From assembly GCA_905182215.1 (NCBI GenBank), contig CAJJAI010000004.1, forward strand, positions 635 to 64,634: a stretch of DNA of 64,000 bases. The letters are read 5' to 3'. The DNA comes from Flavobacteriales bacterium UBA6772 (GTDB lineage Bacteria; Bacteroidota; Bacteroidia; Flavobacteriales; UBA7430). Both the position numbers and the translations under genes were made by a program. The notes beneath the pieces were generated by a model that was not told the origin of the DNA, made no database searches, and was given only the letters and a program-made list of their open reading frames with translations. Shown here piece after piece: positions 53,838-54,258 of the stretch. The first letter of the stretch is position 1. Each line of letters opens with the position of its first letter.

Positions 53838-53919
53838 TACCTTGGGCGGGAATCGAACCCGCACTTCCGAAGAAACTGGATTTTGAATCCAGCGCGTCTA
53901 CCAATTCCGCCACCAAGGC
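53838..53919 (-). tRNA. tRNA-Leu (anticodon CAA), class II with long variable arm
   Basis: The reverse complement GCCTTGGTGGCGGAATTGGTAGACGCGCTGGATTCAAAATCCAGTTTCTTCGGAAGTGCGGGTTCGATTCCCGCCCAAGGTA folds as a cloverleaf: anticodon stem CTGGA/TCCAG, loop TTCAAAA, T-arm GCGGG/CCCGC. Confidence 0.93.
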
Positions 53920-54168
53920 TTAGTTAAAAGATTCTTTGATCTTTCTAAGCTTTTCTTTGCCGATTCCAGATTTCCAATATTTCTCTCGAACTCTGGCTTC
54001 GACTCTAGTAGTACAAACTTCAGAATAAATTAATTCAAAAGGCTTGTAAAATCGTGTAGTTCTTTCTCTACCGTCATTATGTCTCTTTATACGTTCGTCA
54101 ATATTTTGTGTCATCCCTACATAAATGTAGTTGTGGAGTTTACTTGATATTGCATAAACATATATCAT
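53920..54168 (-). CDS. 82-aa stand-alone GIY-YIG nuclease-domain protein
   Basis: MIYVYAISS...YIYVGMTQNIDERIKRHN...E(ARVREKYWK) carries the GIY / YIG / Arg / Glu elements of the GIY-YIG fold. Its stop codon directly abuts nucleotide 1 of tRNA-Leu. Confidence 0.82.
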   Translation of the reverse strand: MIYVYAISSKLHNYIYVGMTQNIDERIKRHNDGRERTTRFYKPFELIYSEVCTTRVEARVREKYWKSGIGKEKLRKIKESFN

Positions 54169-54179
54169 ATTTTTATTTT

Positions 54180-54228
54180 AGCGCGCCTGCCTGTCGGCAG
54201 ACAGGTCTACCAATTCCGCCACCAAGGC
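54180..54228 (-). pseudogene. tRNA-Leu 5' fragment (equivalent to tRNA nt 1-29) interrupted by a 20-nt palindrome
   Basis: 54206-54228 is identical to 53897-53919 and 54180-54185 is identical to 53891-53896. The two blocks are separated by exactly CCTGCCTGTCGGCAGACAGG. Confidence 0.85.
54186..54205. repeat. 20-nt imperfect palindrome CCTGCCTGTCGGCAGACAGG (copy 1), inserted in the tRNA fragment
   Basis: It is the only difference between the 29-nt tRNA-derived direct repeats. A related copy lies at 32269-32288. Confidence 0.7.
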
Positions 54229-54250
54229 ATTTATGGTCTATAAGACGTGG

Positions 54251-54258
54251 CAAAAGTA
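54251..54258 (-). promoter_or_regulatory. candidate -7 box (TACTTTTG on the minus strand) upstream of the tRNA-Leu 5' fragment
   Basis: TAnnTTTG match 22 nt upstream of the fragment's first nucleotide, comparable to the box 13 nt upstream of tRNA-Phe. No such box is seen directly upstream of the intact tRNA-Leu. Confidence 0.4.

Follow-up and report, generated by a model that had tools for sequence, protein, structure and literature searches.

The window, as we call the whole 64-kb stretch of DNA analysed here, contains a compact minus-strand locus in which a -7 box is followed, in order, by nt 1–29 of a tRNA-Leu with a 20-nt interruption, an 11-nt spacer, a GIY-YIG ORF, a tRNA-Leu(CAA) and a terminator. 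An earlier note on this DNA had placed these elements, and when all coordinates were re-read from the sequence its placement proved correct to the base. The -7 box is of the Bacteroidota type (TACTTTTG, positions 54251–54258, minus strand) and is the resident tRNA promoter, now lying upstream of a tRNA fragment. The fragment begins with nt 1–23 of tRNA-Leu(CAA) (54206–54228, minus), an exact repeat of the 5′ end of the intact tRNA that covers the acceptor 5′ strand, the D-stem 5′ strand and the D loop. Read one base further, positions 54228–54205 match tRNA nt 1–24 (53919–53896) exactly, and this 24-mer is found at only two sites in the 64 kb, where shuffled sequences predict none. One may then parse the fragment as nt 1–24, 20 extra bases and GCGCT (tRNA nt 25–29, at 54184–54180). 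The cleanest parse, however, is nt 1–23, a palindrome and nt 24–29 (CGCGCT, 54180–54185, minus), in which the interruption is a discrete 20-bp palindromic hairpin element (CCTGTCTGCCGACAGGCAGG, 54186–54205, minus) that separates the D loop from the 3′ strand of the D stem (GGTAGA^CGCGCT). With its flanks the hairpin reads GGCGGAATTGGTAGA-CCTGTCTGCCGACAGGCAGG-CGCGCT on the minus strand. The palindrome is sparse in the window, with two copies in 64 kb: the sole further match, where none is expected, is a degenerate copy (CCTGATTGCCGGTAGGCAGG, 32269–32288, no strand assigned) in the spacer between two convergent genes.

Downstream of the fragment lies the AT-rich 11-nt spacer (AAAATAAAAAT, 54169–54179, minus), which, rather than being foreign DNA, probably derives by decay from the anticodon loop region (tCAAAATcc); homology of the fragment reaches about nt 40 by local alignment, and ctggattcaaaatcc is retained at the spacer position in four related loci (L023, L004, L005 and L058). 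The ORF itself (53920–54168, minus) encodes an 82-aa single-domain GIY-YIG nuclease (Pfam PF01541, E = 4.9e-18), and its TAA stop directly adjoins nt 1 of the intact tRNA-Leu(CAA) (53838–53919, minus; called by ARAGORN, Rfam tRNA 61.1 bits), which is followed by an intrinsic terminator with an 11-bp stem and a T-run (53808–53833, minus). An Rfam scan of the region returned the tRNA as its only significant match, the remaining ones being sub-threshold terminator look-alikes, and no intron RNA was detected around the ORF. Neighbouring genes in the window encode prs, L25, an Lcl_C-domain protein and an OMP beta-barrel.

Relatives of the ORF are encoded in 258 GTDB species, and the cassette recurs in many marine Bacteroidota while missing from most of their relatives; cultured carriers include Formosa sp. 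S-31, Aggregatimonas sangjinii and Robertkochia marina. Copies elsewhere mostly lie close to tRNA genes, a point that the earlier note had proposed to check: in 71 of the best 80 loci, each from a different species, an intact tRNA-Leu(CAA) lies just downstream of the ORF in the same prs-linked locus, at up to about 50 nt from the ORF stop in 68 (most at 0–28 nt) and at 50–170 nt in the other three. The divergent prs gene adjoins 75 of these 80 loci, and in 52 of 72 related loci the fragment and the neighbouring intact tRNA agree over nt 1–9. Empty sites in relatives, the comparison to which the earlier note had pointed, are common. Among 80 metagenome loci retrieved with Polaribacter prs, 65 carry tRNA-Leu(CAA) with neither ORF nor palindrome and four carry the ORF or a remnant of it (three of these with the palindrome), a filled fraction of about 6% of the sampled prs loci. 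Empty and filled alleles (e.g. L097 and L092, respectively) have the promoter and downstream flanks in common, and no difference separates the regenerated tRNA from empty-site tRNAs in the 45 nt compared at the 5′ end. The proposal that insertion regenerates the tRNA is likewise supported, in that the conserved prs/tRNA-Leu(CAA) site keeps one intact tRNA and that, in one locus (L026), the resident tRNA is physically split around an ORF, a foreign intact tRNA and a terminator. The break between nt 29 and 30, which the note had taken as the insertion junction, does not generalize and was rejected as such: elsewhere homology extends to about nt 17, to nt 38–47 or further, decaying as it goes, and its end differs between loci.

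The layout seen in the window is not the only one. A mirror arrangement, with the tRNA and terminator first, then the ORF and then a 3′ fragment bearing the palindrome at nt 53/54, occurs in five loci (L070, L054, L052, L170 and L171), and the target may also be tRNA-Leu-GAG (L052), tRNA-Leu-UAA (L170) or tRNA-Ser-GGA (L066), all of them class II. Tandem arrays are present in L046, L054 and L172 (the last, in a complete genome, has three units), pseudogenes or remnants in L073, L092, L144 and L149, and a foreign intact tRNA beside a resident fragment in L026, L036, L049 and L078. One further locus, L174, has the same hairpin and layout and probably comes from outside Bacteroidota, because its promoter is sigma70-like and its CCA is encoded. 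As in integrase islands and prophages, a tRNA gene has received an insertion together with a replacement segment; this preserves an intact tRNA and leaves behind a direct repeat made of part of it. The cassette differs from them in its size (~330 bp), in the absence of a tyrosine or serine integrase beside the duplicated tRNA segment, in duplicating the 5′ part in its common layout where islands normally duplicate the 3′ part, in duplicated lengths that vary and may include the promoter (L066) or terminator (L054, L170), and in the hairpin insertions borne by its leftover tRNA copy. An integrase-type island was rejected on two of these counts, the missing integrase and the duplicated 5′ part.

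The 20-nt palindrome, which the earlier note had left as an incidental insertion, is the most conserved non-coding feature of these loci, co-occurs strictly with the ORF and is the key part of the locus. It is present as the exact 20-mer in 48 of 81 loci even though synonymous sites of the ORF are saturated, and with at most two mismatches upstream of the ATG in 62 of 81, at a median of 25 nt before the start codon. The insertion site after nt 23 is the same in 61 of 72 loci of the common layout (type A), and the 31-mer composed of GGTAGA, the palindrome and CGCGC is exact in 41 of 81. The sites occupied by the hairpin are stem/loop junctions of the tRNA: 61 hairpins follow nt 23, about 27 follow nt 8/9, five lie in the D loop and others in the T arm at nt 53/54. 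It is mostly found on a single side of the gene, downstream of the ORF in the mirror layout, and at the nt 9/10 site either orientation is found.

Might such palindromes be ordinary REP-like repeats that pile up in dispensable DNA, dead tRNA fragments for example, with no functional link to the ORF? Copies do occur in other intergenic spacers, namely at 32269 in the window, in the prs/L25 spacer of L060, L072 and L078, and after L25 in L033 and L039. Yet most species have the same variant at the same nucleotide, none of the 65 empty sites has the palindrome, and it accompanies the ORF at other tRNAs and in what is probably a different phylum. Matches are enriched about 400-fold beside the ORF (83 within 160 nt of the ATG versus 17 in the remaining ~450 kb), and away from the cassette there are some 5–7 copies in ~400 kb of ORF-positive loci versus one in ~330 kb of ORF-negative loci, these being counts over loci and not over whole genomes. 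We therefore give coincidence almost no credence.

Alternatively, the hairpin could be conserved exactly because it works in RNA, as a 5′-UTR stem-loop that stabilizes or regulates the ORF-tRNA transcript or keeps the leftover tRNA half from pairing wrongly with the tRNA downstream, with the target of the nuclease being unrelated. The predicted location in the 5′ UTR so close to the ATG is compatible with this, the leader folds stably as RNA (-26 kcal/mol, z = -2.4), and variant stems remain complementary (CCTGCC/GGCAGG, CCTACC/GGTAGG and CCAACC/GGTTGG). However, an RNA structure needs neither exact loop bases nor exact asymmetric positions, and these are nonetheless preserved in the 48 exact copies; the mirror layout puts the element downstream of the ORF, in the T arm; further copies sit in unrelated intergenic spacers; and both orientations are tolerated at the nt 9/10 site. 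A role confined to RNA thus seems to us quite improbable.

The promoters bear out two further observations of the earlier note, that the old promoter was stranded upstream of the 5′ fragment and that the intact tRNA has no -7 box of its own. In the window, a promoter scan of the 60 nt preceding the intact tRNA found no TAnnTTTG, and across related loci a -7 box precedes the intact tRNA in only six of 69, whereas one precedes the fragment in 62 of 69, 9–46 nt ahead of its nt 1; at empty sites the same motif lies 11–37 nt ahead of the tRNA. Given this distribution, co-transcription of fragment, ORF and tRNA is plausible, if unproven. The captured tRNA promoter would drive a single transcript containing the fragment, the hairpin, the ORF and the tRNA, from which RNase P would then free the tRNA, and host expression of tRNA-Leu(CAA) would in this way run through the cassette.

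The ORF product consists of the GIY-YIG domain and nothing else: the Pfam domain spans residues 1–68 of 82, with no further domain and, in particular, no separate DNA-binding domain beside the catalytic core. An AF2 model (pLDDT 93.7) predicts a compact GIY-YIG fold, for which PDB searches gave UPF0213 BH0048, Slx1 and the I-TevI catalytic core as nearest solved structures, all generic GIY-YIG neighbours, and returned no Ssn structure. The best matches in sequence and structure are to UPF0213 proteins (BH0048, EF2693, YazA) and Slx1 (1zg2, E = 2e-4, 34% identity; Slx1, TM-score 0.60–0.67), which have R-x-x-x-H-N and E-K-x-x-K motifs in common with the ORF product. These are housekeeping proteins or proteins of unknown function, no link of any of them to tRNA genes or hairpin repeats is reported, and Slx1, unlike the cassette protein, has an extra RING domain and requires a partner, Slx4. 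The ORF is under purifying selection (dN/dS ~0.12), with 28 residues invariant among 22 homologues; third codon positions are only 47% identical and synonymous sites are saturated between most loci (dS at least 1). The wider family comprises 7,506 cluster representatives at E ≤ 1e-3, and the 148 close representatives examined are all of 68–214 aa; where N-terminal extensions are called, they mostly translate upstream tRNA pieces or palindrome DNA. By sequence comparison the ORF is not a recognized defence gene, as PADLOC and PHROGs gave weak matches to the N-terminal motif only, and NCBIfam gave only weak matches, to other families. A tblastn search of plasmids had B. subtilis yazA as its sole match. 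A phage origin was rejected, there being no relatives in 2.9 million viral contigs of IMG/VR.

Several of these observations bear on the model of the earlier note, a classical free-standing GIY-YIG homing endonuclease that would cut the intact double-stranded tRNA-Leu gene of cassette-free genomes, with repair of the break copying the cassette and its tRNA segment. Presence/absence polymorphism at a highly conserved gene (65 empty versus four filled sites), regeneration of the target by partial duplication, discordance of acceptor stems together with the split resident tRNA of L026, and weak N-terminal matches to phage homing endonuclease families are all as such a model would have them. Among known enzymes of this kind, the Seg enzymes of phage T4 are free-standing, and SegB is located in the T4 tRNA gene cluster. 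The cassette is like I-TevI and Seg in its catalytic core, its presence/absence polymorphism and a target flank that travels with the element, but unlike them it comes without a DNA-binding domain, phage or intron, leaves its target regenerated unchanged and has a conserved hairpin alongside. The lack of a DNA-binding domain, which extends to all 148 close representatives, speaks against homing, as do the closer structural similarity to UPF0213 and Slx1 than to I-TevI and the absence of viral relatives. Moreover, since the regenerated tRNA equals the empty-site tRNA over its 5′ 45 nt, insertion would confer no immunity over that stretch, and the host would still be cleavable unless the site spans the promoter/nt 1 junction. 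Nothing in the data points to cleavage of the tRNA gene by the nuclease, given this identity and a protein that groups with UPF0213 and Slx1 and is more Ssn-like than I-TevI-type; a homing model also leaves the strictly co-occurring, sequence-conserved hairpin unexplained, and we consider it unlikely.

The closest known system, likened here to the cassette by its published description and, on our side, by sequences and a predicted fold, appears to be the Ssn family of site-specific single-stranded DNA nucleases, that is, SsnA of Neisseria meningitidis and its homologues (CDD cd10448; Chenal et al., 2025, PMC11893778). Ssn nucleases are single-domain GIY-YIG proteins of ~94 aa that bind a hairpin repeat flanking their own gene and cut single-stranded DNA site-specifically next to the hairpin, but neither double-stranded DNA nor RNA; the authors remarked on the IS-like look of the system and raised the mobility of a nuclease plus hairpin unit only as a hypothesis (PMC11893778). 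Like Ssn, the cassette has a small single-domain GIY-YIG protein (82 versus ~94 aa) with no DNA-binding module, and a gene linked to a hairpin-forming repeat of 20–50 nt with copies also elsewhere in the genome; the Ssn precedent may thereby offer, by analogy, an account of how an 82-aa core could achieve specificity. Unlike in Ssn, the hairpin sequence is unrelated to the NTS, is usually on one side of the gene and rare in the genome, and the gene lies within a tRNA gene that is duplicated in part, with hairpins at cloverleaf stem/loop junctions. The published SRM pattern (HGTCWY...RNCYNB) had no match in the window or the 80 cassette loci, in a search that found the NTS positive control. The main text of the Ssn paper mentions neither tRNA nor Bacteroidota (PMC11893778), and a literature search found no description of a tRNA association for hairpin-linked nucleases; if the analogy holds, this would be the first link of the hairpin-specific nuclease class to tRNA genes found in that search.

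We thus lean, by a little, towards the explanation that the cassette is a mobile or selfish GIY-YIG gene with its cognate hairpin, nested in tRNA-Leu(CAA) and encoding an Ssn-like hairpin nuclease. Its ~330 bp comprise the single-domain nuclease gene and the 20-nt hairpin that we take to be its cognate element. Insertion comes with partial duplication of the tRNA, whereby the resident promoter and nt 1–29 stay upstream, with the hairpin at the D loop/D stem junction, and a complete tRNA directly follows the ORF stop codon. By analogy with Ssn, the nuclease would recognize the hairpin as single-stranded DNA and cut nearby, and the double-stranded tRNA gene would not be cut. The cassette would be inherited vertically over short distances, occasionally reach other genomes and other class II tRNA genes, amplify in tandem and decay, and the flanking tRNA sequence would give it universally conserved homology for recombination. 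Of all this, the data show the arrangement of the locus, the polymorphic insertion, the duplicated tRNA segment, the conserved hairpin with its tie to the ORF and the purifying selection on the ORF, and we infer what the nuclease recognizes, the joint transcript and how the cassette moves.

Whether the cassette moves at all is where a further alternative comes in, namely that of an old, immobile, domesticated gene that entered once in an ancestor, was kept where useful to the host (e.g. in DNA repair or the control of incoming single-stranded DNA) and was elsewhere lost by recombination between the tRNA repeats. Strong purifying selection on the ORF fits such a history, and so does the fixation of an invariant locus in the population of the window. 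Nothing points to recent transfer, synonymous divergence being saturated between most loci, and 36 of 69 loci have their nearest GIY-YIG neighbour among their three nearest prs neighbours. In mechanistic terms precise loss is easy, and loss could account for much of the patchiness because recombination between the repeats would restore a perfect empty site. A single ancestral entry is harder to reconcile with the variety of tRNA targets (four or more) and with two layouts that mirror each other, with the foreign intact tRNAs beside resident fragments, with tandem amplification and pseudogenes, with one locus that is probably from outside Bacteroidota or with the low filled fraction (~6%) among sampled prs loci. 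Further, the host of the window is an outgroup by prs (62–68% identity), yet its ORF is at least 80% identical to that of five loci. Identities of GIY-YIG and prs are uncorrelated (Spearman 0.04–0.06), in part through saturation of the 82-aa protein, and the comparison is at most suggestive of horizontal transfer. Taken together, these points make a domesticated gene improbable in our judgement.

Returning to the mobile, Ssn-like cassette, a bolder form of this explanation, which we put forward as speculative and rather doubtful, is a minimal autonomous mobile element of ~330 bp whose nuclease would recognize hairpin/stem junctions in single-stranded DNA, including those of the class II tRNA-gene cloverleaf. 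Cuts at nt 9/10, 23/24, 31/32 and 53/54 would seed insertion of the hairpin and cassette, the replacement tRNA segment would serve as a portable homology arm, host expression of tRNA-Leu(CAA) would be tied to the cassette's own transcription, and the hairpins would break up direct repeats that could otherwise delete the cassette. If so, the cassette would owe its persistence to a strategy not previously described for mobile elements. In any case, the cassette resembles REP/RAYT and IS200/IS605 systems in combining a short palindrome family with a small nuclease gene, in having single-stranded hairpins as the likely substrate and in its intergenic copies. It differs from them in its few copies, concentrated in tRNA fragments, and in its enzyme, which is a predicted hydrolytic GIY-YIG nuclease and not an HUH/Y1 transposase, making a peel-and-paste mechanism unlikely.

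For annotation, these loci mean that many database entries of the nuclease family bear false N-terminal extensions made from tRNA and hairpin DNA. For tools that act on single-stranded DNA, the pair of exact hairpin and enzyme would be a candidate for a new specificity. What Ssn-type nucleases do naturally beyond Neisseria, and whether nuclease and hairpin move as a unit, could be addressed directly in this cassette family: empty and filled alleles can be compared cleanly at a single conserved locus, several tRNAs serve as targets, tandem arrays and decay products occur, and the hairpin is conserved to the base. For the hosts, the promoter arrangement suggests that hundreds of marine Bacteroidota species may express their ordinary tRNA-Leu(CAA) only by read-through of a nuclease gene.

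The cassette on the minus strand of the window is built as the earlier note described it, element by element, a description found correct by sequence reading, ARAGORN, Rfam, Pfam and a terminator scan. A -7 box (TACTTTTG, 54258-54251) and a 22-nt leader precede a copy of tRNA nucleotides 1-23 (GCCTTGGTGGCGGAATTGGTAGA, 54228-54206), followed by a palindrome (CCTGTCTGCCGACAGGCAGG, 54205-54186), by CGCGCT, which equals tRNA nucleotides 24-29 (54185-54180), and by the spacer AAAATAAAAAT; the GIY-YIG ORF (Pfam E=4.9e-18) then runs from ATG to TAA (54168-53920) up to an intact tRNA-Leu(CAA) (53919-53838), with a terminator of hairpin and T-run at 53833-53808. 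The 24-nt tRNA 5′ repeat occurs twice in the 64 kb, against an expectation of zero. The 20-nt insertion in the tRNA copy, previously recorded and left uninterpreted, is indeed present, and only its parsing changes: it is a discrete 20-bp palindrome.

The cassette is an insertion, and most relatives are without it. Among 80 metagenome loci fetched with a Polaribacter prs as query, prs faces a bare tRNA-Leu(CAA), with neither ORF nor palindrome, in 65, while four carry the ORF or a remnant of it, three of them with the palindrome. An empty locus (L097) and a filled one (L092) have promoter region and downstream flank in common, and differ by the rest of the tRNA fragment, the spacer, the ORF and the duplicated tRNA 5′ part. 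With such empty sites found in relatives, the earlier note's model of an insertion that regenerates its tRNA is supported in outline, whereas its choice of the break between nucleotides 29 and 30 as the insertion junction finds no support. Across the window's own marine population the cassette locus is invariant and fixed. In the same species, a run of N lies directly 3′ of the tRNA in one locus (L081), and on another contig three additional small genes, encoding 88, 115 and 45 aa, separate the tRNA from the Lcl_C gene, suggesting that an insertion at the 3′ end of the tRNA varies within this population. Separately, Polaribacter-like loci, empty and filled alike (L092, L097, L054, L080), have a short repeat of the tRNA 3′ end (aatcccRcctcgagtac) ~100-130 nt downstream of the tRNA-Leu gene; it has the look of a scar from an old insertion of integrase type at this tRNA, unrelated to the cassette. 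In another Polaribacter-like prs locus (L096, 2000-2500), tRNA-Leu(CAA) is not where it usually lies, and the promoter region is followed by an unrelated ORF.

Homologues of the 82-aa protein number in the hundreds at 60-93% identity, chiefly in Flavobacteriaceae. Scanning one genome per GTDB species gave 258 confirmed relatives, and the best 80 of these 258 loci were fetched. In 68 of the 80, the stop codon is followed within ~50 nt by an intact tRNA-Leu(CAA) (mostly at 0-28 nt, with overlap in some), and in three more this tRNA lies at 50-170 nt; divergent prs and the L25 gene adjoin the cassette in 75, and almost every ATG is preceded by a 5′ portion of the tRNA-Leu present at the locus. 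The window's arrangement is thus found again at a single conserved site of the chromosome. In 52 of 72 loci, fragment and local intact tRNA have the same nucleotides 1-9, despite nine acceptor variants across species. In four loci (L003, L059, L172, L052) the ORF runs into the following tRNA sequence, by 22 nt in L059, and stops at the TAG of GGTAGA or at a TGA inside the fragment, so that protein gene and tRNA gene overlap. One 4.6-kb locus with two ORF copies (L050) contains a full-length tRNA-Leu(CAA) copy with the palindrome in its D arm (3263-3360), and ARAGORN found no intact tRNA-Leu(CAA) in these 4.6 kb; either a functional one lies elsewhere, or its loss is tolerated, or the interrupted copy is used.

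Other loci carry signs of movement, amplification and decay. A mirror layout, with intact tRNA and terminator, ORF and a 3′ tRNA fragment, is found in five (L070, L054, L171, L052, L170). Further targets are tRNA-Leu(GAG) (L052), tRNA-Leu(UAA) (L170) and tRNA-Ser(GGA) (L066, where the duplication takes in ~27 nt of promoter); with tRNA-Leu(CAA), all four are class II tRNAs. Tandem arrays occur in L046, L054, L149 and L172, the last being the complete genome of Aggregatimonas sangjinii, with three 313-bp units, and pseudogenes or truncated copies in L073, L092, L144 and L149. In L026, one resident tRNA is split into a 5′ fragment (GCTCGAG...) and, downstream, a 3′ remnant (...CTCGAGTAC); between them lie the ORF, a second tRNA, intact and with another acceptor stem, and the terminator. 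Fragment and intact tRNA are mismatched also in L036, L049 and L078. Over short range, inheritance of the cassette looks vertical from sequence comparison. The phylogenetic signal of GIY-YIG versus prs is suggestive only, because the 82-aa protein saturates: in 36 of 69 loci the nearest GIY-YIG neighbour also ranks in the top three by prs, 12 are strongly discordant, and the window ORF is at least 80% identical to five loci, although its host stands as an outgroup in prs (62-68% identity, versus 70-99% among other loci). One locus (L174) is probably not from Bacteroidota, to judge by its TGnTATAAT promoter, its genome-encoded CCA end and a sortase as neighbour; at its tRNA-Leu(CAA), layout and palindrome are the same. 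A search of viral contigs found no relatives of the ORF.

The palindrome keeps close company with the ORF: across the 80 loci, 83 copies lie within 160 nt upstream of an ATG, versus 17 in the remaining ~450 kb, several of these in neighbouring tRNA remnants. In the common layout, 61 of 72 fragments have it after linear nucleotide 23, where the D loop passes into the D-stem 3′ strand (GGTAGA^CGCGC); a second copy follows nucleotide 8/9, just 5′ of the D stem, in ~27 and a third lies in the D loop in five; in every mirror-layout fragment read it stands between nucleotides 53 and 54, where T stem meets T loop. The L174 fragment has a GC-rich variant (CCTGCCCGCCGGCAGGCGGG) at nucleotides 9/10 and three head-to-tail copies with a 21-nt period (CCATRTCTGCCGACAGGCAGG) between anticodon stem and anticodon loop (1150-1290), so the hairpin is able to amplify in tandem. 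All these sites are stem/loop junctions, and they have no flanking sequence in common. Of 81 loci, 48 have the exact 20-mer and 41 the 31-mer that includes its flanks, despite third codon positions in the adjacent ORF that are only 47% identical (dS at least 1); the sequence itself is therefore constrained, beyond its ability to pair. Variants retain complementary stems (CCTGCC/GGCAGG, CCTACC/GGTAGG, CCAACC/GGTTGG, TCTACC/GGTAGA), and a few copies are dispersed in ordinary intergenic spacers. The only other copy in the 64 kb, the degenerate CCTGATTGCCGGTAGGCAGG (32269-32288), sits between convergent genes for a PpiD-like protein (30364-32151, plus strand) and an S41 peptidase (32326-33927, minus strand). 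A further hairpin family (TCCCGATAGCTATCGGGA / CCCCGAAGCATCGGG) is likewise inserted into dead tRNA copies, at D loop and T loop, or lies just upstream of these copies (L017, L031, L035, L069, L172 at 1383-1397, and downstream remnants of L026 and L172); its core, TCCCG...CGGGA, loosely recalls the Neisseria dRS3/NTS core, and it does not fit the SRM pattern of the Ssn repeats discussed below.

In 62 of 69 loci, the fragment is preceded at 9-46 nt by a Bacteroidota -7 box, in agreement with where such a box stands before the tRNA of empty sites; only six loci have one in front of the intact tRNA. The window is not among the six, the promoter scan bearing out the earlier observation that no -7 box directly precedes its intact tRNA. 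The captured tRNA promoter would thus yield one transcript through the cassette, from which RNase P may free the tRNA directly after the stop codon.

The protein itself is a single domain with 28 invariant residues, including the GIY/YIG tyrosines, Arg, His-Asn and Glu, a dN/dS of ~0.12 and an AF2 model at pLDDT 93.7; the nearest solved structures are UPF0213 BH0048 (34% identity), Slx1, the I-TevI catalytic core and the UvrC N-terminal domain. With a cut-off of E<=1e-3, an exhaustive profile search gave 7,506 cluster representatives; the top 150 are small proteins without exception. N-terminal extensions are called in 29 of 148 representatives examined, and most recognisable ones are translated pieces of tRNA (AELVD, GFES, GSSPAFGT) or palindrome (LPAGRQA, LSADRQA), so the link with tRNA and hairpin reaches well past close homologues. 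Many database entries (P0012, P0020, P0028, P0116, P0233-P0358) likewise bear false extensions of 15-60 aa, because gene callers translate the upstream tRNA fragment and palindrome into peptides such as EWRNWQT, AELVD, LPTGRQA and LSADRQA. The earlier note's reading of the protein as a tRNA-targeting nuclease gained no support. An independent link between small GIY-YIG proteins and tRNA is hinted at by the prokaryotic fusion of a Slx1-cluster GIY-YIG domain with a TrmH-like methyltransferase of tRNA (Gm18, D loop), for which a role in RNA metabolism was suggested (Dunin-Horkawicz et al., 2006; PMC1564403).

Among described systems, the Ssn family comes closest: single-domain GIY-YIG proteins of ~94 aa (CDD cd10448) that cleave single-stranded DNA only and bind a hairpin repeat (NTS/SRM) flanking their own gene and dispersed in the genome, the arrangement NTS-ssnA-NTS having an IS-like look on which the authors remarked (PMC11893778). 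This precedent answers the question, raised earlier, of how a bare catalytic core could be specific. The SRM pattern does not fit the cassette hairpin, tRNA and Bacteroidota are both absent from the main text of PMC11893778, and a literature search for tRNA nesting of such nuclease genes found no description; given these points and the Ssn-like features, we therefore say that the cassette 'works like' an Ssn/hairpin pair, a likeness and no class assignment. We regard the nesting of a nuclease/hairpin cassette in a tRNA gene as new. Most likely, this is an Ssn-like nuclease and hairpin cassette, nested in a class II tRNA gene, which would be expressed from the captured tRNA promoter and mobile on evolutionary time scales.
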